A DNA stretch of 61,774 nucleotides, filler included, from Myxococcota bacterium (GCA_023150835.1; 4 parts of 4 records of this genome joined end to end with filler, not necessarily neighbours in it), one strand, 5' to 3'; positions 1-57,769 are shown, numbered from the whole stretch's first letter. Notes: generated by a model not told the origin, from the letters alone. Numbers and translations: made by a program.

Positions 1-130
1 GTTTGTGATAAGAAGCCTCTGGTTTGTGATAAGAAGCCTCTGGTTTGTGATAAGAAGCCTCTGGTTTGTGATAAGAAGCCTCTGGTTTGTGATAAGAAGC
101 CTCTGGTTTGTGATAAGAAGCCTCTGGTTT
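1..130. repeat. Perfect 21-bp tandem repeat (GTTTGTGATAAGAAGCCTCTG x6 plus partial), running off the window start
   Basis: Six identical units at 1-126 plus GTTT; no spacers. Confidence 0.97.
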
Positions 131-16067: not shown

Positions 16068-16958
16068 ATGGTGGAACAAAAGCAGATCTTTGGGTCGATT
16101 CTTCCTTTTGAGCGCATCGTGATCGCGCTGGATTCTTCGCCCCATAGCGTTCAGGCCCTTGAGGCGGCCTTGACTCTTGCGAGGTTATGGGATCTCTCGA
16201 TACACGGTGTTTTTGTGGAAGACAGCCAGCTTCATTACGCTGCCGAGATATCGTTTTCCCGCGAAGTCTCTCGCTTTTCCAGTACCCCTCAACCCCACAC
16301 CGCCGTATCCATCGCCCAACAGATCGCCGCGCAACGCAACCGCATCACGCAACATTTTCAACAGTGCGCACAACGCGCAAAGATCGCGGCTTCTTTCCAA
16401 TCGCTTCGCGGCTCTGTTCGCCACATGATCGCGCAAGCTCTTTCGCCACAAGACTTGCTTGGCCTCGGTTGCGCGGGGCATTCATCCTCTCCCTCCAAAC
16501 AAGTCGGTTCCAACACCTTGCACTGGCTCACCCAAACACGTCGCGCTTTGTTGATCGCACACGAAAGCGCCCAATACGGCGAAGAGATCGCCGTATTTTT
16601 TGACGGTCAACCCGCCAGTTTGCGTGCGCTTGATATCGGGGCGGCCTTGGCCTTGCGATCGGGCCGTCAGACGATCCGCGCCTTTCTTCCGCAACAGCCC
16701 GTCGCCAACTTCGAGCAGCGTCTTGCTTTGTTGCAAGAACATACTCGCAAACTACCGTTGTCTGTGCATTTGGTGCTGTTGCCTTCGCCTGTGCTGCTTC
16801 ATCTTGTCCGAGCCATCGAAGCGCACCGATGCGGGTTTTTGTTGTTGCCCGACTCGACAGAAACATCGTCGCACGATCTTTTCCGCTGGATCGGCCTTTT
16901 GTGTTGCCCGCTGTTGGTGATCCGAGAGTCGACTATGCGAGATCCGCAGGGCGCGTGA
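16068..16958 (+). CDS. Universal stress protein (tandem USP domains)
   Basis: RIVIALDSSPHS..AL..A; LLGLG..G...VGSNT; second half IAVFFDG. Confidence 0.85.
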   Translation: MVEQKQIFGSILPFERIVIALDSSPHSVQALEAALTLARLWDLSIHGVFVEDSQLHYAAEISFSREVSRFSSTPQPHTAVSIAQQIAAQRNRITQHFQQCAQRAKIAASFQSLRGSVRHMIAQALSPQDLLGLGCAGHSSSPSKQVGSNTLHWLTQTRRALLIAHESAQYGEEIAVFFDGQPASLRALDIGAALALRSGRQTIRAFLPQQPVANFEQRLALLQEHTRKLPLSVHLVLLPSPVLLHLVRAIEAHRCGFLLLPDSTETSSHDLFRWIGLLCCPLLVIRESTMRDPQGA

Positions 16959-17165
16959 TCGCAAAACGTTAGGGGCAGCCATAGGGGGCTGCCCAAGAAT
17001 CGGGCGTCTACGTGTTCTCCTTTGTGTACGCATTACTCGGATATCGTATTATACGAGATCCGCCCGTAGTGTGATCGTAAAAATGTAGGGGCAGCCCCCT
17101 GTGGCTGCCCAACAATCGGGCGTCTGGGCGCTCTCCTTCGATCACAGATCACTCGGATATCGTAT
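16950..17165 (+). repeat. Two tandem family A elements between convergent genes
   Basis: Two GGGCAGCC..GGCTGCCC hairpins; both copies end CGGATATCGTAT (17049, 17165). Confidence 0.85.
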
Positions 17166-18703
17166 TACTCCGAGAGATTCGAGCATTTTGAGCTTGTCTG
17201 CAAAGGAAGAGTGATCCGAAAACAAGCTCCTGTGGTGTTGCGTGTGTTGTCCGTCACTTCGAGGGTTCCGCCTGCTTCGAGCAGCGTTCGTTGACAGATC
17301 GCAAGCCCGAGGCCCACGCCTTTTCCGGGTTCTTTGGTCGTAAAAAAGGGTTCAAATATCTTTTCGCGCAGCGTTGCGGGGACGCCCGGACCGGCATCTT
17401 CGACGCAAAGCACGAGTAGGGCAGAGCCTTCTGTGGGTTGAAGCGCAGCGGACAGCCAGATCGGCCCCTTGCCCTGTGTCGCATCGGCAGCGTTGAGCAG
17501 AAGGTTGATCAAGACTTGCATCAGGGCAGAGGATTCGATGGGGACGATGGGAAGGTCAGGAGCGACTTCTTGTTGCAAGGTGGCTTGTCGAAAACGCGGT
17601 TGCAAAGACAACAACTCGATGGCTTCTTCGATGGCTTGGTTGGGCCAACAAGAAGCAGTTTGTGTTTGTTTGGGGCGTGCGTAGTCCAGCAGATCCCGAA
17701 TGATCCGATCGATGCGTTTGGCTTCTTTTTCGATGCGCTTAACAAGGTCTCGTTCGGCTTCGCTCCACGTCTCAGAAGTCGCAAGCAGATCGCTGTAGCC
17801 CATGATGGCGCTTAGTGGATTGCCGATCTCGTGCGCAACACCAGCGGCCATCTGCCCGACAGAAGACAGCTTTTCGCGTTGGATCAACTCGTTTTGGGCG
17901 CGTTGAAGGATCTTGTTGGCTTCTTGGAGGGCTTGGAGCTGCGTTTCTCGGGTGGTTTGGTGGACTTGTAAGATCGACTCCATCCCCACAAAAGAACGCG
18001 CAAGATCGCCGATCTCGTCTTGGCGCGTCACTTCGATCTCCAAGCCATCGCTGCGGCCTTTGGCTGCAAGGTGATCCATCGCGTGTCCAAGACGCTCAAG
18101 GGGTCGGACAAGACGCCTCGTAAGAAAAAAAAGTAAGATGAAGAGGATGATCGCGCAAAAGAGAAACAGGTAGATCAGAAGCAGCGTTTGATAAGCAAAA
18201 AATGCCTGTCGATCCAAGGCGATACGCCAGCGGATCCATACCGCGCCGATCTTTTTATTGGCTTCGTACAAAGGAACGCTGCGTTCCCACACTTCGCCGC
18301 GTTGTTGGGGGTCGCGCTGGATCTCAAAACGGGGGGTGGTCGCTTGGTGTGTGGTTTGGATGTAGAGGGTCTTTTCTTGTGCGCGGATCCGCCCCATCTG
18401 CCACACTAGATGTCCCCGTACATCTAGGCAAAAGGCCGCCTCAGGCTGGTGTGGGCGGATCATCCGAAGCCAACGGTGCAGCCACTGCAAACGTTGCGAG
18501 GCCGAAGCTGCGGAGATCGGGTGCGTTTGCCAGCCCACCTCCAAAAATTCCGCCATCTCTTGAAGATGTCGCCGCCGAAGCTGCATATCGCGCACCTGTG
18601 CGACGTACAGCGCAAGAAAGCTCAACCCCATCGATGCCAACAACATCACCAAACCAAGATTAAACGCCAATTGGCTGCGCAGACCATAACGAAAACTTGG
18701 CAT
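17165..18703 (-). CDS. Membrane HAMP sensor histidine kinase (NtrB-type; PilS2-like by position after pilD)
   Basis: Two TM segments, HAMP (RQDEIGDL), AHEIGNPL H-box, [23 protein letters not shown]. Confidence 0.93.
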
Positions 18704-18911: not shown

Positions 18912-20108
18912 TCAATAAAAAAGAAAGATCCGTCGTATCGTTTCCATCCACCACGCAACGATGCGCTCTCCCCAAAAGATCACTTCAAACGCACCAAGCG
19001 CCAAAAAAGGCCCAAAGGGGATCGCGACCCGACCCCATCCGATATCTTTTTGCGCCTCTTCCACTTGGGGCGTCTCGGAGGTCTCGGTAGATGGGGCAGC
19101 TTGGGATGTTTCGGAGGTCTCGGTAGATAGGGCAGCTTGGGATGCTTCGGATGTCTCGGTGGATGGGGCGGTTTGGGATGCTTCGGATGTCTCGGTAGAT
19201 AGGGCAGTTTGGGATGTTTGGGAGGTCTCGGTGGATAGGGCAGTTTGGGATGTTTCGGAGGTCTCGGTGGATAGGGCAGCTTGGGATGTTTCGGAGGTCT
19301 CGGTGGGTGGGGGGGAGAGGGGAGAAGGGGCTTGTTCATCCCAATCTTCAGGGACTTGTTCGCGCCATCCGAGGAGATAAAGGAAGATCGCCACGACGAC
19401 ACCTTGGACAGATGCAAGGAAGACGACTGTGAGCGTGTTTTTCCATCCGACGAAAGCCCCGATCAGTGCGAGAAGTTTCACATCGCCAAGCCCGAGACCT
19501 GTTCGTCGCAAGACCCATTCATAAAAGAGATGGATCACCAGCAAAGAACCGCCGCCCAAAGCTGCGCCCAACGCGGCGTCTTGCCACGTCGGCAACAAGG
19601 GAGGCCCAAACAAGGCGGCGGCTCCGATGGCAAGGGGGATCGTCGGAAGAGACAGGACATCGGGGATGATCCAATAAGCCAAATCGATGAACGTGATGAC
19701 GATCAACACGCAGACAAAAGCAAAGATCACGAGACTTTCCCAACGTGGCCCAAAACGCCGAACCACCGCCACCGCCATCACCGCCGTCATCAGCTCAACA
19801 AGCGGATATTGCAGAGAGATCGAGTACTTTTCGCAACGGCAACGGCCTCGCAACCAAAGGTAGCTTAAGATCGGGATGTTGTCGTACCAAGCGATCTGTT
19901 GGTTGCAACCGAAACAGATCGAGCGTGCGGGCGAAAACACAGACATCCCTTCAAGCGGGATGCGGATGATGCAGACATTCAGAAAACTTCCGACAAAGGC
20001 TCCATACACAAAAGCCATGCCGTAGAGATACAGCGGTGGAAGTTGTTCAAAGAGGTTGACGGCAAAGAGCAAGTCGGGACTCCTTTTCGAGACGGCGCGT
20101 GTCCACAA
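18912..20108 (-). CDS. pilD: Prepilin peptidase/N-methyltransferase with inserted 12-aa repeats (start uncertain)
   Basis: GSFLNVCI.RIP, two Cys pairs, FIDL, GLGDVKL, IPFGPFL. Confidence 0.95.
   Translation of the reverse strand: MWTRAVSKRSPDLLFAVNLFEQLPPLYLYGMAFVYGAFVGSFLNVCIIRIPLEGMSVFSPARSICFGCNQQIAWYDNIPILSYLWLRGRCRCEKYSISLQYPLVELMTAVMAVAVVRRFGPRWESLVIFAFVCVLIVITFIDLAYWIIPDVLSLPTIPLAIGAAALFGPPLLPTWQDAALGAALGGGSLLVIHLFYEWVLRRTGLGLGDVKLLALIGAFVGWKNTLTVVFLASVQGVVVAIFLYLLGWREQVPEDWDEQAPSPLSPPPTETSETSQAALSTETSETSQTALSTETSQTSQTALSTETSEASQTAPSTETSEASQAALSTETSETSQAAPSTETSETPQVEEAQKDIGWGRVAIPFGPFLALGAFEVIFWGERIVAWWMETIRRIFLFY
19070..19305 (-). repeat. 36-bp in-frame tandem repeat (STETSETSQAAL, about 6-7 copies) inside pilD
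   Basis: Repeated GTCTCGGT(A/G)GAT at 36-bp period. Confidence 0.92.
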
Positions 20109-22500: not shown

Positions 22501-22600
22501 NNNNNNNNNNNNNNNNNNNNNNNNNNNNNNNNNNNNNNNNNNNNTTAATTAATTAANNNNNNNNNNNNNNNNNNNNNNNNNNNNNNNNNNNNNNNNNNNN
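22501..22600. other. Artificial contig linker
   Basis: N runs around TTAATTAATTAA (stops in all six frames). Confidence 0.99.
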
Positions 22601-22849: not shown

Positions 22850-23108
22850 TTTTCGCGGCGGGTGGTCTTTCTAGTCGAAGTTTTCTTCTCTGTCAAGACC
22901 TTTTTTTCTAGCCCGCTTTTTCGCGGCGGGTGGTCTTTCTAGTCGAAGTTTTCTTCTCTGTCAAGACCTTTTTTCTAGCCCGCTTTTTCGCGGCGGGTGG
23001 TCTTTCTAGTCGAAGTTTTCTTCCCTGTCAAGACCTTTTTTCTAGTTTTTTTGATGCCGCTCTCGTGCAGCGGGGGGCTGTTGTACTGGATGGGTTTGTT
23101 TTTGTCAA
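22850..23108 (-). promoter_or_regulatory. Four tandem sigma70 rRNA promoters; three are a 67-68-bp triplication
   Basis: TTGACA-17-TAGAAA (-35 at 22891-96, 22959-64, 23026-31) with GC-rich discriminator; TTGACA-17-TACAAC (23103-08/23080-85). Confidence 0.85.
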
Positions 23109-29534: not shown

Positions 29535-30032
29535 TTAGGGGGAGGTGGAGATGGCCGAACATCGGGCTTGTGTGCGCATTAGATCGGTCTTTATCTGTAA
29601 AAACGTCCAGCAGCGTTGTGGATCGGGTGGGGTGTTGGCTTCATTCCAACACGTTGGGCGCGATTGGTGGTTAAGAAAAGAATTGCAGACCCCTGAGACT
29701 TCGCGGCGAGAAGCCGTCGAGGGAGCGAGTTCGCTTGGAGGAAACAACAACGTCGCTTCTTCTTGTGCATCGGCGGGAGGCGGCATCTGGATATCTTCGC
29801 TTGCGCAAGTGGTTTCATCAAGGCAAAACCAAAAACGACGCTCTTTGTATTCAAAGATCCAGATGAGTTCGCTTTTTTGGCGAAAGATCATACAGCCTTT
29901 GCGGGTTTTCGTGCTGAGTGCTTGAAAAGCCGCCTGACAGTTGGCATCAGGAACCATCTCGATCTGTTTCGGTCCACAAGAAAACAACACACCACAAACA
30001 CCCACAAACAAAAGAAAACGGATGACTCGCAT
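29535..30032 (-). CDS. Cys-containing lipoprotein
   Basis: MRVIRFLLFVGVCGVLFSC lipobox; GAGGA upstream. Confidence 0.7.
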   Translation of the reverse strand: MRVIRFLLFVGVCGVLFSCGPKQIEMVPDANCQAAFQALSTKTRKGCMIFRQKSELIWIFEYKERRFWFCLDETTCASEDIQMPPPADAQEEATLLFPPSELAPSTASRREVSGVCNSFLNHQSRPTCWNEANTPPDPQRCWTFLQIKTDLMRTQARCSAISTSP

Positions 30033-30067
30033 CTCGTCATATTCCTCTATCGAAAAAGAAAGATACG

Positions 30068-30865
30068 CTATTTTTGACAAGCAGAACAACGCAAGACGAT
30101 GCGATCTTGTTGAGAGATCCCCACACCGATCCCCACGCCGATCCCGATCACAACAACGCCCCCCACAACAAACCAAGGCCAAAGCGGTACAGAAGCCGTG
30201 CGTTTGGGGACAGGCGGAGAAACAGGACGCTGCGCAACAAGGCGGCGCTCGACGGAAGACTCGGATGGTCGGCGTTCGACGGAAGACTCGGAGGGACGAC
30301 GCTCGACAGGAGCTTCGGATGGTCGGCGTTCGACGGGCTGTGAGGTTGCGAGCAGAGGAGTTCGAGGTTGAGGCAGGCTTGTTACGGAGGCGTCGGGCTG
30401 TGTCACAGGTTGGGTGGTCGGCTGGGTGGTCGGAAGGATCGCTGTGGGGAGAGGCATGGGAAGGAGCCAATGTTGGACGCCTCGGGTGCGCCCTTTGAGA
30501 GGGCGGTGGTAACGGAGAGATTGGCTGCGATACAGCACAGCGATCCAAAGATCGACCTTTTTGTAGGCCACCACGCGAAACTTGCAAGGCGTCACGTTGG
30601 CGGGGAGACAAGGGAGCGGCTTGTTGTCTTGCGTCAGAGCGACAGGAAGGCCTGAAGGAGAGGTCTCCAGAAGGATATCGCTGTAAGTCGTGGGGAGCGC
30701 GGTCAGTGGGTCGTCTTTGTCGTCTTTGCTATCTTTGTTGGTCTGTGCGAGCGCAAGCGTCGAAAACAAGAAACAAAGCAGCATCACCCAACGAGCCAAC
30801 ACAGGCGCTCGCTGAGCATACAACGGCTCAGAAGTGGGCCAAAAGACCGCAAGATCGAAGAACAT
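30068..30865 (-). CDS. Exported/membrane protein with PEGA-like segment, ERRPSE repeats and C-terminal TM helix
   Basis: Signal peptide ending LALAQ; LLETSPSG..VTPC; 27-bp repeats; PLWPWFVVGG TM. Confidence 0.7.
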   Translation of the reverse strand: MFFDLAVFWPTSEPLYAQRAPVLARWVMLLCFLFSTLALAQTNKDSKDDKDDPLTALPTTYSDILLETSPSGLPVALTQDNKPLPCLPANVTPCKFRVVAYKKVDLWIAVLYRSQSLRYHRPLKGRTRGVQHWLLPMPLPTAILPTTQPTTQPVTQPDASVTSLPQPRTPLLATSQPVERRPSEAPVERRPSESSVERRPSESSVERRLVAQRPVSPPVPKRTASVPLWPWFVVGGVVVIGIGVGIGVGISQQDRIVLRCSACQK

Positions 30866-30989
30866 CAGATCGGCTCCATCGGAAAAACTTTTTGAAAACA
30901 GAATCGAAGCGATGCAGTTGAAAAAGAGAAAGACCTGTTCGCGGCCCCCGCCCAATCGCAGTAACAAGATGTACCGAGCAGGAGAGACT

Positions 30990-31310
30990 CCCACAAAGGT
31001 GCAGACTTCGTTTGCACAGCGGTACACCCGCCCCTTGGGTTTGTGTTTCTGCCCACACTTCGGGCAGGTTTGGCTGGATTTGAAGAGCGTGCTGCGGAAA
31101 CGCTTGCGCTTGTAAGGGAAGCGAGCGTTCGTGTCTTGTTTGCGAAGTTCGCGGGCCGTTTTGATGGCCTTGTAGAAGCCCTGTTGAGCGGCGTCGATGC
31201 TGTGGGAGTGAAGGATGGAATCGGTGGAGCCGAGGGCATCATCGACACGCTCGGCTTTGGAGGTGGACATCCAGACGCCGTGTTTGCGATAAAAGCGCCA
31301 ATTTAGAGTG
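30990..31310 (-). pseudogene. tnpB: Internally deleted IS200/IS605 tnpB remnant
   Basis: WRFYRKHGVW..LHSHSIDAAQQGFY..RFPYKRKRF (N-terminal helical part) fused in frame to SQTCPKCG..KPKGRVYRC..C (zinc finger); RuvC absent. Confidence 0.85.
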
Positions 31311-31930
31311 CCTTGAGAAAGTGACCCTTTTTTTTGAGGGTCACGCGCCGTGTGTCTCGAATGCAACGACACACAATATACATAAAAGGCGCATGATTTA
31401 AGGTGCATTCAACGTTTCTTTACCCTAAAACAGGGTTGCGCTCGTTTGCAAAAACAAGCGCATTGGACGGGGAGGTTGCTTCAGACAAACGTTCGAGCAT
31501 CTCGGCGTTTGCTGCGACCTGTGAGCCGTCAAAAAAGAGGGTCACTTCTGATCCGAAGCTCGGCGCTTTAGAGCCGAGTCGTTCACCAAAGAGAAGGATA
31601 CGCAAACGCTGAGCAATTTGCAACTCTTTATTTCAGCAGAAACAAAAGAAGCAACGGCTTACCACTGGGGTGAAACCCCCGTGGCTTACGAAGCGTGAAA
31701 CTCCCTTTGGTCGTTTTGCGCCGTTATTTTTCTGCCAAGAGCAGGCGGGGATGTAGAGAGAGGAACGGTGCGTCAGTTCGACGAGAAGAAAGCGGGTAAA
31801 AAACAGCGTAAAGGTCCGTATGATAAGAAATCCGAGTGACGCGTGCACGAAGCATCGTTCGCAGACGCCCTGTTTTGGGCAGCCATAGGGGGCCCTACGT
31901 TTTACGATAACGAAACGAGCGGAGAGCGTA

Positions 31931-33253: not shown

Positions 33254-33353
33254 NNNNNNNNNNNNNNNNNNNNNNNNNNNNNNNNNNNNNNNNNNNNTTA
33301 ATTAATTAANNNNNNNNNNNNNNNNNNNNNNNNNNNNNNNNNNNNNNNNNNNN
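33254..33353. other. Artificial contig linker
   Basis: N runs around TTAATTAATTAA. Confidence 0.99.
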
Positions 33354-33405
33354 TGAAGAAAACAACGAAAACTCGATGGGTTCGTTCAAAACAGATAGCG
33401 ATGAA

Positions 33406-33666
33406 GAGGTCACCGACGCAACAGAGATCGGGCAGGCACACCTGTCTGCCCCTACAAAACACCGTGTGATTTCCAACACGTAGGGGCAACCATGTGTGGT
33501 TGCCCTCGCTGAGGTTGGTTTGAACGGACCCACTCGAGGTCACCGACGCAACGGAGCGAGGGCAGGCACGGGGGCCTGCCCCTACAAAACACCGTGTGAT
33601 TTCCAACATGTAGGGGCAACCAGGTGTGGTTGCCCTAGCTGAGGTTGGTTTGAACGGACCCACTCG
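33406..33666. repeat. BIME/REPIN-like cluster: two 130-bp units, each with an inverted pair of GTAG-REP hairpins
   Basis: GGGCAGGC..TGCCCCTAC-linker-GTAGGGGCAACC..GGTTGCCC repeated at 33406 and 33536. Confidence 0.88.
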
Positions 33667-33800
33667 ATCAAAAACGTCGCTCATGAGGTTCCTTAGAAGA
33701 CCTCAAAACACAACATGAGCCTCTGCGAAGATATCCCCCAACCAAACACTCGTAATGGTTTGCTAACCCTTTGGTTTTGAAACGAAGCTTTCGTATCGGG

Positions 33801-33828
33801 TTGACAGCGCCCAAGAAAAAAGTACACT
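33801..33828 (+). promoter_or_regulatory. Putative sigma70 promoter of the 33903-34628 gene
   Basis: TTGACA-16 bp-TACACT. Confidence 0.6.
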
Positions 33829-33902
33829 CCCCTCCAGTCCCGATGGTATCCCAACCCAAGCCCGCGCATCTTGATTTCTTGCATCCCCTCATGGAGGTCA
33901 CG

Positions 33903-34628
33903 ATGTCTCTTTCGTCTCTGAGTACTGGCTCGATGATCCTTGTCCTCAAGCATCTCCTTCAACCCGAATCCCGCAAGATCCTCGAACAAATCCCTCTTCT
34001 TCAACCCTTCATCCCCGAACTGGAACGCGTCCTCTCCGCCCTCGAATCAAGCCGCCCTGACAAAGCAAGCTCCGATGAAGCCGAACGCATCATCCGCAAA
34101 ATCCTCAACGACTGCGATCGCAAGCACGATACCCTCAACCGTCACCTCTATCGCTTGCTTGAGATCACCACAGACGCCCTCCCTGAATCGATGAAACCAC
34201 AATACCAAGCCGTACACGAGCGGCTTTTTCCTCTCGGCTTGGCCGTCAATCGTTTGCGTTGGGTTGACGAGGCTGGCGAAGTTGCCCGCTTCGAAAAGCA
34301 ACTTCGTTCCGATGCCAACCTCTCTCGTATGCTCCTTGAAATGACCCTCACCGTCGGCGGTGTCGAACGCCTCAATGGCCTTGCTCTCGCAGAAGCCCTG
34401 ATCCAAGTCGGCAAAGACATGGATCAAAAACTTCTTGAACTCAACAAGCTCCAATCGGGCGGCACGACCGCTGAAACACAAGCCCGACGCGACTTCGTTC
34501 GTTGGGTGACGCGCTTCGTTGACCTCGCGCAGATCGCTCTCGCCGCACAACCCATCCTCTTGCAAAAATTGCTTGTTGAACTTCAAAAGCAGCTTGACGA
34601 TGTCCCCTCCGAACCCTCCAAATCCTGA
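33903..34628 (+). CDS. All-helical hypothetical protein (241 aa), loosely DUF6261-like
   Basis: GGAGG RBS; D..HD...R.LY..L and LFP.GL....W.DEAGE motifs; family call is from memory. Confidence 0.85.
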   Translation: MSLSSLSTGSMILVLKHLLQPESRKILEQIPLLQPFIPELERVLSALESSRPDKASSDEAERIIRKILNDCDRKHDTLNRHLYRLLEITTDALPESMKPQYQAVHERLFPLGLAVNRLRWVDEAGEVARFEKQLRSDANLSRMLLEMTLTVGGVERLNGLALAEALIQVGKDMDQKLLELNKLQSGGTTAETQARRDFVRWVTRFVDLAQIALAAQPILLQKLLVELQKQLDDVPSEPSKS

Positions 34629-34671
34629 CACTCTTCAAACCACACGCCCCTTTTGTTCTGCGCTCCCGCCC

Positions 34672-34980
34672 AGAACGCTAAAAAGAGCGTGTTATCGCAG
34701 ATCGTTTGCAATAGAACGCTAAAAAGAGCGTGTTACCGCAGATCGTTTGCAATAGAACGCTAAAAAGAGCGTGTTATCGCAAGTCGTTTGCAATAGAACG
34801 CTAAAAAGAGCGTGTTACCGCAGATCGTTTGCAATAGAACGCTAAAAAGAGCGTGTTATCGCAAATCGTTTGCAATAGAACGCTAAAAACAGGGGTGGAA
34901 CTTGGGCGTTGGAGGAAAAATCGCTAAAAGCAGGGGTGTAACTTGGGGATTGGAGGGAAAATCGCTAGAAGCAGCGGTAG
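34672..34980. repeat. 41-bp-period tandem array: 5 near-identical units, then 2+ units of a different sequence in the same phase
   Basis: AGAACGCTAAAAAGAGCGTGTTAYCGCARRTCGTTTGCAAT at 34672/34713/34754/34795/34836; CGCTA(A/G)AA anchor continues at 34881/34922/34963. Confidence 0.95.
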
Positions 34981-34996
34981 AAGTGGGCGGTTGGCC

Positions 34997-35145
34997 AAAA
35001 AAAGCCGTGTTCGCGCAGTTTGAAGCGACAGAGTCGTTTGTTTTGAAAACCTGTGATCTTTTCGCCCACATGGGGTCAAGGGGGTTAAGACCCCTTGTGG
35101 GGTGTGGGGTGAAACCCCACAAAATAAGCCCGCTGCGTAAGGCCG
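34997..35145 (+). repeat. Family B element
   Basis: AAAAAAGCCGTGTTCGCGC..GGGGTCAAGGGG..CCCCTTGTGGGGTGTGGGGTGAAACCCCAC..TGCGTAAG. Confidence 0.8.
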
Positions 35146-35213
35146 AAGGTGGTCGGAGATGAGCGAAAATTTGGGTGTGGAGTGTGAAAGGTTCGGTTGA
35201 GAGGGGATATCAC

Positions 35214-35242
35214 TTGACAGGAAGGGGAAGGGAGCATAGCCT
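35214..35242 (+). promoter_or_regulatory. Putative sigma70 promoter of the rpiB-nusB operon
   Basis: TTGACA-17 bp-TAGCCT. Confidence 0.55.
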
Positions 35243-35311
35243 TTGCGCGCCTTGTGGGGTACGCAGTGAGAACAGGCGATAGAATTGTTTGTGAGAAAGA
35301 GGAGTTGCGCG

Positions 35312-41121: not shown

Positions 41122-41158
41122 CTTCCCGCAAAGAAAAGCACACGGAAAGCACTGACAT

Positions 41159-41353
41159 TGTTGGGCAGCCACATGGGGCTGCCCCTACGTTTTACGAACG
41201 AAGATTAGTGCGTAGACGCCCGATTGTTGGGCAGCCACAGGGGGCTGCCCCTACGTTTTACGAACGAAGATTAGTGCGTAGACGCCCGATTGTTGGGCAG
41301 CCACAGGGGGCTGTCCCTACGTTTTACGATCACACGATGGGCGGATTTCGTAT
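41159..41353 (-). repeat. Three tandem REP hairpins (about 67-bp period) ending in the family A terminus
   Basis: TTGGGCAGCCAC..GGGGCTG(C/T)CCCTAC x3, then CGGATTTCGTAT; lies between convergent genes. Confidence 0.9.
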
Positions 41354-48690: not shown

Positions 48691-50681
48691 AAGCTGCTCC
48701 TAGAGGGTGGGGCTTGACGGAGTGTGGGCGTGGTCGGGAGTGAGGCAGGCGGAGCGATCGGAAGAGAGGCTGCGGAAGGAAGGGTTGTCGAGGTGGGAGG
48801 TGCGGATGGGCGGGATGTAGGGGCCGTCGTGTTGTTGGGAGATGCGGAAGGACGGGATGTATGGGCCGTCGTGTTGTTGGGAGATGCGGAAGGACGGGAT
48901 ATATGGGCCGTCGTGTTGTTGGGAGATGCGGAAAGACGGGATGTATGGGCCGTCGTGTTGTTGGGAGATGCGGAAAGACGGGATGTATGGGCCGTCGTGT
49001 TGTTGAGAGGTGCGGATGGAGGCGGTACTGCGGGTGTGGTGGATGTAGAAGATGCGGAAGGGTGGGGTGTTGTGGAAGCATACGGACGAGGCGGCCCGAT
49101 TAGCGGGAAGTTGCGTTCCCAAGTGAAGCCTTTGCCATCGGAGACGCGGATCTTGACGGTGTAGGGGTTTTGATCGTGGGCGGAGCGCGGGATCATGGTA
49201 AAGACGTTGGCTTTGTCGAGTCCGTAGGCATCGATCTCGATGGGATTGATGGGGATGATGGAACGCAGGGGGCGATCTTTGGGGCCGATGATCTCGATGC
49301 GGTAGGATTGTTTGGAGGCGGTACGGTTGGCGACGCGGATGTGGAGGTGGTTGCTGAGGCTACCGTCGCCAAGGAGCTTGTAGGGTTCGCTGCCAGCGCG
49401 CAATATGGAGGCTTCGGCACGGGTGCGGCTGGTACGGGTCATGGCGAAAGCAAGGACCGAAAAGAGGAAAAGGATCAGAACGGAATAGACCAGAGTGCGC
49501 GGTCTTTTGAGGCGGAGGCGCGGCCCGCCTTCGATTTCGGCTTGCGAAGCATAACGGATCAGGCCCTTGGGTTTGTTGACTTTGGTCATGATGGCGTCGC
49601 AAGCGTCGATACATTGGGCGCAATTGATGCACTCCATTTGTAATCCCTCGCGGATATCGATCCCCATCGGGCAAGCGACCACGCAAGCGCCACAGTCGAT
49701 GCAGTCTCCCCACTCGTTGGCCGAAGGGGCCGAAGTGGCGGAGGATACGGAGCTTAGGAGAGAAGCGGTCGGAGCGGCGGATGGCGTCGAAGAAGTTGGT
49801 GGAACGGAAGGGGTAAGCTGTGTCGAAGAAGACGGTGGGATGGAAGGGATAGGCTGTGCCGAAGAAGACGGTGGGATGGAAGGGATCGGCTGTGCCGAAG
49901 AAGACGGTGGGGCGGAGGTTTTGCGCAGGGCGGCGCGTCCGCGTGGCTCACCACGGTTGGGGTCGTAGCCGACGATCAGGGTGTTGCGGTCAAGGAGGGC
50001 GGACTGGATGCGTCCATAAGGGCAGGCGACAAGGCAGGTTTGTTCGCGGAAGTAGGCGAAGTCAACGAAGATAAGGAGGGTGGTGATCAACATGACAAGG
50101 AAAGGAGCGGGGTGTTTGAAAGGGGATTCACGGACCCAGATCCAGAGGACTTCGGGGCTGACAAAGTAGGCGAGGAAGCTGTTGGCGAGGATGGCGGCGA
50201 TCAGCAAAAAGATCGCGTATTTGAGTAAGCGGATGGGGGAGAAGAAGCTTTCGCGATCGCGTTTGAGGCGTTGAGCGGGGGGGCCTTCGAGCCAGTGTTC
50301 GATCGGTCGGAAGAGGAATTCCATGTAGACGGTTTGAGGACAAGCCCATCCGCACCAAACGCGGCCAAAGAGGGCGGTAAATAAAAAGATGGCAAGGCCG
50401 ACAGCAAGCAAAGACAGCCAAAGGATCAAGGTATCGGTGGGGAAGAAGGTAAAGCCGAAGATCGTAAAACGGCGAGCGGTGAGATCGAGCAAGAAGAGAT
50501 GTTTGCCGTTCCAGCGCAGGTAGGGCAAGACGACAAAGATCAGCATCAAGAAGTAGGCAAGCCACTTTCGCTGTGCATGGAGCTTGCCGGTGGAAAGTTT
50601 GGGGTGGATCCAACGACGGGTGCCGTCTTTGTTCATGGTGGGTAGGACACGTTCGTTGGAAGTGGGGGTTGGGTTGTTCAT
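48687..50681 (-). CDS. ccoG: Cytochrome c oxidase accessory protein CcoG/FixG with low-complexity insertions
   Basis: GRVWCGWACPQT, CPYGRIQ, CIDCGACVVACPMGIDIR, ECINCAQCIDAC. Confidence 0.96.
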   Translation of the reverse strand: MNNPTPTSNERVLPTMNKDGTRRWIHPKLSTGKLHAQRKWLAYFLMLIFVVLPYLRWNGKHLFLLDLTARRFTIFGFTFFPTDTLILWLSLLAVGLAIFLFTALFGRVWCGWACPQTVYMEFLFRPIEHWLEGPPAQRLKRDRESFFSPIRLLKYAIFLLIAAILANSFLAYFVSPEVLWIWVRESPFKHPAPFLVMLITTLLIFVDFAYFREQTCLVACPYGRIQSALLDRNTLIVGYDPNRGEPRGRAALRKTSAPPSSSAQPIPSIPPSSSAQPIPSIPPSSSTQLTPSVPPTSSTPSAAPTASLLSSVSSATSAPSANEWGDCIDCGACVVACPMGIDIREGLQMECINCAQCIDACDAIMTKVNKPKGLIRYASQAEIEGGPRLRLKRPRTLVYSVLILFLFSVLAFAMTRTSRTRAEASILRAGSEPYKLLGDGSLSNHLHIRVANRTASKQSYRIEIIGPKDRPLRSIIPINPIEIDAYGLDKANVFTMIPRSAHDQNPYTVKIRVSDGKGFTWERNFPLIGPPRPYASTTPHPSASSTSTTPAVPPPSAPLNNTTAHTSRLSASPNNTTAHTSRLSASPNNTTAHISRPSASPNNTTAHTSRPSASPNNTTAPTSRPSAPPTSTTLPSAASLPIAPPASLPTTPTLRQAPPSRSSF
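48800..49020 (-). repeat. 42-bp in-frame tandem repeat (PNNTTAHTSRPSAS, about 5 copies) in the ccoG tail
   Basis: GGGCCGTCGTGTTGTTG recurs every 42 bp. Confidence 0.92.
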
Positions 50682-51288: not shown

Positions 51289-51388
51289 NNNNNNNNNNNN
51301 NNNNNNNNNNNNNNNNNNNNNNNNNNNNNNNNTTAATTAATTAANNNNNNNNNNNNNNNNNNNNNNNNNNNNNNNNNNNNNNNNNNNN
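51289..51388. other. Artificial contig linker
   Basis: N runs around TTAATTAATTAA. Confidence 0.99.
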
Positions 51389-57509: not shown

Positions 57510-57769
57510 ATACGATCTCCGAGAGAAGTGTGCTTAAAGGATAGGTGCGATCCGCTGTAGACGCCCTGTAGTTGGGCAGCCACAGGGGGCTGCCCCTACA
57601 TATTGGCGCACACGATGGGAAGATTTCGTATGTTTTTTTCTGGATAGGAGAGGATGGATGCGATAGACGCCCTGTGGTTGGGCAGCCACAGGGGGCTGCC
57701 CCTACATATTGGCGCACACGATGGGAAGATTTCGTATGTTTTTTCTGGATAGGAGAGGATGGATGCGAT
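57510..57769 (-). repeat. Family A element with a 106-bp tandem duplication that includes the next gene's RBS
   Basis: TAGACGCCCTGT..GGGCAGCCACAGGGGGCTGCCCCTAC..AGGAGAGGATGGATGCGAT at 57558 and 57664. Confidence 0.88.

Follow-up and report, generated by a model that had tools for sequence, protein, structure and literature searches.

Do a gene for a small helical protein and the tandem array that follows it belong together and, if so, what might the array be for? The question is raised by a locus in the genome of a Myxococcota bacterium (GCA_023150835.1), of which a stretch of 61,774 nucleotides, here called the window, was analysed. At this locus a gene for a 241-residue protein, P0001, is followed by units repeated every 41 bp. 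The window is made of four contigs (C112, C124, C126 and C127) of a 239-contig, 7.56-Mb assembly with N spacers between them (22501-22600, 33254-33353 and 51289-51388), and the locus has its home on contig C126, which begins at window position 33354. We found that gene and array constitute a real, conserved two-part module whose recurrence in paralogs, in sister genera and in Sorangium lies far above chance, in support of the gene-plus-array unit that had originally been predicted here. From locus to locus the unit sequences vary, while the period and a short dyad persist. Coordinates are collected in Table 1.

As originally predicted, the open reading frame (ORF) is preceded by a promoter-like TTGACA-16-TACACT and by a ribosome-binding site (RBS), a GGAGG that sits 5 nt ahead of the ATG. 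The promoter scan gave 1 such site compared with 1.3 expected in shuffles, and by itself the match is not beyond chance; the same box is also present in the 85%-identical ortholog L097, on a metagenome contig, whose homology (85.6% over 188 nt) begins with this 5' region, at C126:369, and gives out upstream of that point. Past the stop codon the terminator scan found no terminator-like site on the + strand between gene and array, and a stretch of the spacer (34642-34654) is 85% complementary to the anchor of the first array unit type, unit A.

The anchor CGCTA(A/G)AA had been noted to recur every 41 bp, and it does so without exception: its eight copies start at 34676, 34717, 34758, 34799, 34840, 34881, 34922 and 34963. 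The window holds 10 matches to this motif against 2.48 expected, a count reached in 0 of 100 shuffles. Both of the small inverted repeats described for unit A are there, a hairpin ACGCT-AAAAAG-AGCGT and a second one, GCARR-TCG-TTTGC, and the anchor is best read as the 5' arm plus loop of the first dyad. Unit A occurs in the genome only at this locus (5 hits, all there). As had been supposed, the array is non-coding: stop codons interrupt the unit on either strand, and its length of 41 does not divide by 3. What did not hold was the view that the body of the unit gives way to new, G-rich content after unit 5. Units of array B align with those of array A over the full 41 bp, with 18 of 42 columns invariant across six units, and the ortholog L097 carries a B-type unit; the apparent change of content therefore comes down to two sub-families of one unit. 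A and B descend from a single ancestral 41-bp unit, each homogenised locally and kept in register, and B is the older type, shared with L097 and decaying here. A, B and L097 units have in common their opening 17 nt, which make up the hairpin, as well as a CGTT.G block and an A-rich end. For the same reason a constant anchor with variable cargo in the sense of CRISPR does not describe the array: whole units are 94% alike, where constant repeats with unique spacers would characterise a CRISPR array. A CRISPR-like identity was also rejected by comparison with the real CRISPR array of the same genome, which has a 37-nt repeat, unique spacers and a period of 72-75.

The ortholog allows the unit to be followed between species. 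The L097 protein is 85% identical to P0001 and has the same promoter region, and downstream of it lies an array of 41 bp x 4.2 copies (99% matches) that ends at the contig edge. Its unit is identical to window unit B1 at 35 of 41 positions, compared with 66.9% identity at the third codon positions of the two genes; the unit thus diverges more slowly than near-neutral sites. The L097 dyad is ACCGCT-AAAAAC-AGCGGT and that of unit A is ACGCT-AAAAAG-AGCGT, a compensatory change by which the dyad is kept. The first array unit of L097 carries an inserted element of the REP/MITE type (repetitive extragenic palindrome/miniature inverted-repeat transposable element).

To place the locus among its relatives, family members of this genome were collected by an iterated hidden Markov model (HMM) over all six-frame ORFs, which gave seven. 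A 41- or 42-bp array lies within 500 bp of six of them: 3' of the gene on contigs C126 and C138, and 5' of it on C44, C97, C82 and C213, the C213 array sitting between divergent genes. The automatic count was 5 of 7 within 600 bp, the C138 array having been recorded under period 126. Among control ORFs of 230-400 residues 178 of 5099 (3.5%) have such an array, which gives P(>=6 of 7) = 1.2e-8, with paralogs that are not independent of one another. Including a second gene family described below, the enrichment beside the two families is 20- to 25-fold over controls. Most arrays begin 9-63 bp past the stop codon. Three loci with 5' arrays were scanned for promoters and terminators; no promoter-like site turned up, nor any terminator/promoter pattern.

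The association extends beyond this genome. In two sister genera, arrays stand at L007 (41 bp x 6.5), L054 (43 bp x 5.5), L055 (42 bp x 7.9) and L058 (41 bp x 4.2), and at L011 an array of 43 bp x 4.0 is followed by a different one of 43 bp x 3.0; L008 has a weak array (42 bp x 1.9). The module is not syntenic between genera: it is absent from the rpiB-glyA locus of genomes G004, G005 and G003, and G001 and G002 gave no match. A search of named genomes returned 23 loci, all from Myxococcota. Every one of the 16 Sorangium loci among them has a 42-44-bp array of 2.7-15 copies directly past the gene, and often a second array with the same period and a different unit comes next. In S. cellulosum So ce56 the array begins 9 bp past the stop and a gene for electron-transfer flavoprotein (ETF) then follows. 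In Sorangium units an ATCCGT half-site stays constant every 43-44 bp and its partner arm varies, two unit types being adjacent, and the arrays (43-44 bp, 5-15 copies) have arms of 6-7 bp. So ce56 has eight family-profile matches, of which five are accompanied by arrays of 43, 44 or 84 bp, one, a weak match, by a 32-bp array, and two by none. The check proposed with the original prediction, that homologs be collected and inspected for adjacent arrays of unrelated units whose periods lie near multiples of 10.5 bp, thus came out positive, both in the paralogs (6/7 against 3.5% of controls) and in Sorangium (16/16).

Two variations on the module were also seen. At two of the 16 Sorangium loci (L048 and L052) the protein match covers the first ~98 residues only and a 43-44-bp array comes directly after it, as though the rest of the gene had been lost to the array or to a deletion. 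Weak DUF6261-like matches followed by 32-bp arrays, a period of about three helical turns, occur in this genome (G000:C154:9032-9431, L059; 12.6 copies) and in So ce56 (L096; 9.5 copies).

What kind of protein does the gene encode? The product had been called all-helical, and the AlphaFold2 (AF2) model of P0001 (predicted local distance difference test, pLDDT, 86.7) is helical except for one beta hairpin at residues 148-158. A Pfam scan of P0001 gave 0 families at E<=0.01, no ParB or helix-turn-helix (HTH) match among them, and P0001 itself stays below the 27-bit cut-off of DUF6261 (PF19775). Foldseek against the PDB returned nothing at E<=1e-3 and a wide structure search returned generic four-helix bundles only, at Z 7-9.5 (below 10), which for helical proteins is below a meaningful level. 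Profile methods reach further. At E<=1e-3 a profile of nine close relatives recruited 758 representative clusters, a number that falls to 358 at E<=1e-10; among the family representatives scanned (42 of 149 stored), one (P0069) scores 27.4 bits on PF19775. The iterated HMM seeded with P0001 relatives recruits the divergent paralog on C213 at E 5e-56, and this paralog in turn scores 27.4 bits on PF19775. In a protein language-model atlas, 28 of the 30 nearest clusters belong to the DUF6261 set (top score 0.96). These comparisons link P0001 to DUF6261 at the superfamily level, as a distant relationship, and the DUF6261-like resemblance named in the original prediction holds in that form. A profile search (A2) of 395 sampled genomes from other groups did not find the family, and a single-sequence search of metagenome contigs with P0001 gave no match. 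Several family members have Phe in place of His75, which makes a conserved catalytic histidine unlikely.

Structure prediction further indicates that P0001 is probably a symmetric dimer whose subunits meet at helix 77-97 and at the beta hairpin (146-157). The predicted homodimer has an ipSAE of 0.60, compared with 0.00 for the best control, a level that is reached by 20 of 30 solved homomers and by 1 of 23 solved monomers; between runs, at least 97% of contacts coincide, and pLDDT is 83 or more.

Taken together, these features lead us to a tentative preference, held with reserve, for the possibility that the array works as DNA. It would form a platform of phased dyad sites, spaced four helical turns apart and lying on the same face of the helix, where the encoded protein would assemble cooperatively as dimers, in the arrangement of F-plasmid sopB-sopC. 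Remote arrays with the same unit would be extra sites for the same paralog, and candidate roles of the assembled complex include local chromosome organisation, insulation and regulation. In favour of such a platform is the period itself, 41-44 bp or about four helical turns, which persists in deep lineages that differ widely in GC (55% and ~70%). Arrays are found on either side of the gene (3' or 5'), a dyad of at least 5 bp is present in 7 of 14 family-adjacent consensus units compared with 16% of shuffles, and the deviant stem pairs of this lineage are without strand bias (GU 6, AC 7). The dyad in each unit and the predicted symmetric homodimer also count here. The same unit families also occur at unlinked loci without flank homology (C213, C12 and C146, 91-93% alike), and in So ce56 same-anchor arrays stand at 0.90, 2.16, 3.75 and 4.80 Mb, only one of them beside a family gene. 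A-tract phasing was considered and set aside as too weak, with A5/T5 in 17 of 50 non-coding 40-44-bp units compared with 22% of random 42-mers outside long ORFs.

Several observations weigh against a DNA platform. No DNA-binding domain was recognised in P0001 by Pfam, Foldseek or the wide structure search, and the family is acidic (median isoelectric point, pI, 5.56; 76% below 6 among 152 proteins); an acidic protein in which no nucleic-acid-binding domain is recognised speaks against a DNA and an RNA function alike. At least part of the array shares a transcript with the gene, as contigs from RNA libraries indicate, and in Sorangium the sense-strand stems contain 32 GU pairs against 8 AC pairs, as would fit RNA. 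The association is moreover not universal. There is no array at C70, the remaining family member of this genome, nor at L009 from the sister genera, L092 or L093; of the seven named Myxococcota loci outside Sorangium a single one, from Lujinxingia (L047, 42 bp x 6.0), has an array and six are without; and a true DUF6261 gene in another phylum (L053) has none. Tandem arrays are also exceptionally abundant in this genome, which contains 1084 of them (period >=15, >=2.5 copies), or 143 per Mb. Most non-coding 41/42-bp arrays lie away from family genes, of 47 non-coding 40-43-bp arrays 27 stand no more than 120 bp from an ORF 3' end, and the 20 such ORFs that were scanned represent unrelated families (tetrapyrrole methylase, HsdM, MotA/ExbB, an integrase, a histidine kinase and an M42 peptidase among them).

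The original prediction had allowed for either a binding array or a transcribed array. The module that both presuppose stood, and the choice between them is given here as two weighted readings, of which the RNA one strikes us as possible and on balance rather doubtful. Here the array would be a transcribed 3' (or 5') extension of the mRNA. Its hairpins would stabilise the transcript or bring about its termination in the manner of REP elements, or else the protein would bind them and perhaps cleave them to unit length. A metatranscriptome contig from study X6 (824 nt, depth 96.9) covers 33888-34704 without a mismatch and reaches into unit 1, 76 nt beyond the stop; later pieces follow at depths of 81, 43 and 12.6 with depth 0 at 35157-35300, and contigs from a second study, X14, cover 34454-34735 and also reach the array. 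Such RNA-library contigs are assemblies from which strand, ends and levels are not readable and whose uncovered parts are evidence of nothing, and anything ahead of a terminator is transcribed. Sequencing contigs break off within the arrays, which hides any difference in copy number between samples. At the REP/MITE hairpin (35066-35100) the RNA-library depth is 150-450, from many contigs with loose ends at 35092-35131. The lack of a terminator-like site between gene and array and the closeness of most arrays to the stop codon agree with a transcribed extension, as do the distinct variants of Sorangium stems on the sense strand (Watson-Crick 163, GU 32, AC 8, other 21) and the second-hairpin variants of unit A (GCAGA, GCAAG and GCAAA opposite TTTGC), which pair only if G.U is allowed on the + strand. 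Type III antitoxins, as the excerpted text of PMC8860590 describes them, are likewise tandem RNA repeats that assemble with their toxin. On the other hand the wobble bias is absent from this lineage and could stem from biased mutation, several arrays are placed 5' of the gene or between genes that diverge, and a period near four DNA turns has no obvious RNA reason. An acidic helical protein appears unlike ToxN-type RNases, and the change of His75 to Phe points the same way. No Rfam match was obtained either: at E<=1, five loci gave no relevant family and only chance microRNA matches on a long inverted repeat in L047. Folding of the array RNA was rejected as evidence. It gives a long fold-back in which units pair with one another, on either strand (z -4.2 and -5.2); this arises because the units are dyads and is uninformative on function.

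A selfish or neutral minisatellite, in the manner of mycobacterial interspersed repetitive units (MIRU) or variable-number tandem repeats (VNTR), would need no function at all; its link to the gene family would reflect a mutational hot spot or a mobile context that both share. MIRUs are intergenic tandem repeat families of at least 40 bp, dispersed at unlinked loci and often just past genes, and we know of no gene family that travels with them. The dispersed, intergenic arrays seen here resemble them and differ in their sharply preferred period and in the link to a DUF6261-like gene. The abundance of arrays, the 41/42-bp peak away from family genes and the arrays that follow unrelated genes would all suit a minisatellite, and the same units at unlinked loci without flank homology suggest transposition. 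The REP motif is likewise enriched near family genes (3/7 and 7/14 against 11.5% of controls), the module is not syntenic between genera, and array B, at 81% matches, is decaying. We nevertheless consider this origin unlikely. It does not account for a 20- to 25-fold enrichment next to two gene families, nor for recurrence in Sorangium, where 16 of 16 genomes have the array at a syntenic locus and arrays stand again beside paralogs with unrelated units. The unit is 85% identical between species against 67% at third codon positions, the dyad is kept by compensatory change (ACCGCT/AGCGGT in L097, ACGCT/AGCGT here), and mutation alone fails to explain one preferred period in lineages of 55% and ~70% GC.

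How does the module compare with known systems? The F-plasmid centromere sopC consists of 12 x 43 bp, with a 16-bp inverted repeat in each unit that is bound by SopB (PMC3177203, in its excerpted text). The likeness to sopB-sopC, a type Ia ParABS system, lies in tandem units of about 43 bp with an inverted repeat directly downstream of a protein gene, binding being putative here. Unlike SopB, P0001 is not ParB-like, no ParA ATPase gene is adjacent (the neighbours being rpiB, glyA, nrdR and ribD), and the module is chromosomal, with 7-8 paralogs per genome that each have a unit of their own. In toxin-antitoxin (TA) loci of type III (toxIN, cptIN, tenpIN) a protein gene also stands beside a short tandem array, and according to excerpts of PMC8860590 and PMC12283969 the unit length is set by the complex while the array sequence differs between families. 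There, however, the array precedes the toxin gene, with a terminator between, and the toxin is an endoribonuclease; at our locus the array is downstream of the gene, and the protein is an acidic helical bundle in which no nuclease signature was recognised (no Pfam match, and generic bundles in the structure searches). This layout is thus not the one found at our locus, although some paralogs have 5' arrays.

A closer counterpart may be the bacterial tandem repeats of constant size and variable sequence reported by Subirana and Messeguer, for which the excerpted text gives sizes of 20-21 and 52 nt only (PMC8161180). These authors propose a polymerising DNA-binding protein or small RNAs, and the same excerpts state that no Cas-like partner is known. 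Their repeats share with ours many non-coding arrays per genome, a common period with differing sequences, and short motifs accompanied by their reverse; as far as that text goes ours are distinguished by their size, 41-42 nt (43-44 nt in Sorangium), and by the specific gene family linked to them. In the present genome the periods of non-coding arrays peak at 41 (22 arrays) and 42 (17), compared with 2-5 arrays for each of the periods 37-40 and 43-44, and many of the non-coding 41/42-bp arrays have units that are unrelated to each other, so that size is constant and sequence variable here as well. The arrays constitute a new size class (41-44 nt) of a known and unexplained kind of repeat, with a candidate partner protein; repeats of 41-44 nt might nonetheless figure in the same authors' survey of 1241 genomes from 2020. 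PMC6749651 makes no mention of Sorangium or Myxococcus, and our literature searches brought up no description of a link between DUF6261 and arrays.

Fixed-size, variable-sequence repeats are an acknowledged puzzle (PMC8161180, in its excerpted text), to which a third size class of about four DNA turns would be added. The candidate partner belongs to a widespread and uncharacterised family (758 clusters), with arrays beside members in at least two deep lineages. A first functional lead for DUF6261 would follow, and So ce56 offers a cultivable and genetically tractable carrier of the module.

Table 1. Features of the module locus and other repeats in the window (positions in window coordinates)
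Feature	Position	Strand	Basis
Conserved 5' region with promoter-like TTGACA-16-TACACT (33801-33828) and GGAGG RBS	33722..33902	+	promoter scan; L097 homology
Gene for 241-residue helical protein P0001, distant DUF6261 superfamily member, predicted homodimer	33903..34628	+	ORF call, HMM, AF2, RNA-library contigs
Spacer, stop codon to array	34629..34671	+	terminator scan, repeat-pair search
Array A, 5.3 units x 41 bp, 94% matches	34672..34889	+	TRF (Tandem Repeats Finder)
Array B, 2.8-3 decaying 41-bp units, in register with A	34881..35003	+	TRF (34881-34994, 2.8 copies, 81% matches), repeat search, alignment
Degenerate A-like unit remnant with insertion of ~13 bp, after array B	34998..35040	+	repeat families D2, D4
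Multi-copy REP/MITE-type hairpin, not module-specific; marks end of covered stretch in RNA library	35066..35100	.	inverted-repeat search; RNA-library depth
REP/MITE copies	33406-33667, 16934-17175, 41157-41329, 57558-57769, 35066-35100		
Array, 42 bp x 5.4	48794-49020		
Array, 36 bp x 6.8	19064-19306		
Array, 67 bp x 2.9	22850-23045		
Array at contig start, 21 bp x 6.2	1-130		

The genes next to that for P0001, identified by Pfam scan, are rpiB, glyA (serine hydroxymethyltransferase, SHMT), nrdR and ribD. A Mur-ligase gene upstream was ruled out as a true neighbour, being on a different contig from C126, and ORFs or repeats that span contig joins (such as 33298-33684 on the minus strand) were set aside as artefacts of joining.

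The second helical family that shares the enrichment is lineage-specific and comprises 14 paralogs with proline-rich C-terminal tails and no Pfam match, on contigs C3, C7, C32, C48, C56, C58, C91, C101, C120, C160, C162, C229, C231 and C234 of this genome (G000). Arrays of 41-43 bp lie within 600 bp of 10 of the 14. Aligned with the first family by hhalign, it gives 40-46% probability locally and 67% globally, and a word-index search returned only one near-identical protein. An adjoining position of C234 and C126, which would place a module of this second family upstream of our locus, was not borne out: all that the two contig ends have in common is REP units ~90% identical to each other, and L097 has no second-family gene upstream. 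The GC-rich hairpin family of the REP/MITE type (GGGCAGCC...GGCTGCCC) has 604 motif matches in the genome, and several assembly contigs start or stop inside tandem arrays.

Two arrays of this period lie in CRISPR-cas neighbourhoods. One belongs to the paralog on C138, which sits in a type I-B-like locus (G000:C138:25407-33606; L078, L125 and L126). The order on the minus strand is cas1, cas4, the paralog gene (29908-30696), the 42-bp x 8.1 array (29538-29878) and, ~190 bp further on, a CRISPR array with ~54 copies of a 37-nt repeat at a period of 72-75, with cas8b and cas3 on the other strand; no separate cas2 was seen at this locus. The other is at G000:C183:45531-51091 (L127), where cas1 and cas2 are followed, 275 bp past cas2, by a 42-bp x 5.5 array and, after 1.66 kb, by a CRISPR array. 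The unit of this array is 79% like that beside the paralog on C44, and a gene resembling AEP-TOTE primases lies ahead of cas1. At the other cas1 loci (C237, C149, two in G003 and one in G004) no such array was seen, which brings the count to 2 of 4 cas1 loci in this genome and 2 of 7 across the family of genomes. One may speculate that DUF6261-superfamily proteins read repeats of constant size and variable sequence, the dimers of each paralog polymerising on their own four-turn array and on its remote copies to make addressable nucleoprotein landmarks, of which one use might be the architecture of CRISPR leaders; as a whole we think this scheme decidedly improbable.

Elsewhere in the window, on contig C124, a 446-residue ORF (30068-31408, minus strand) scores 17.2 bits on a Cas12f1-like TNB domain (cut-off 26.3) and may be a TnpB-like gene.

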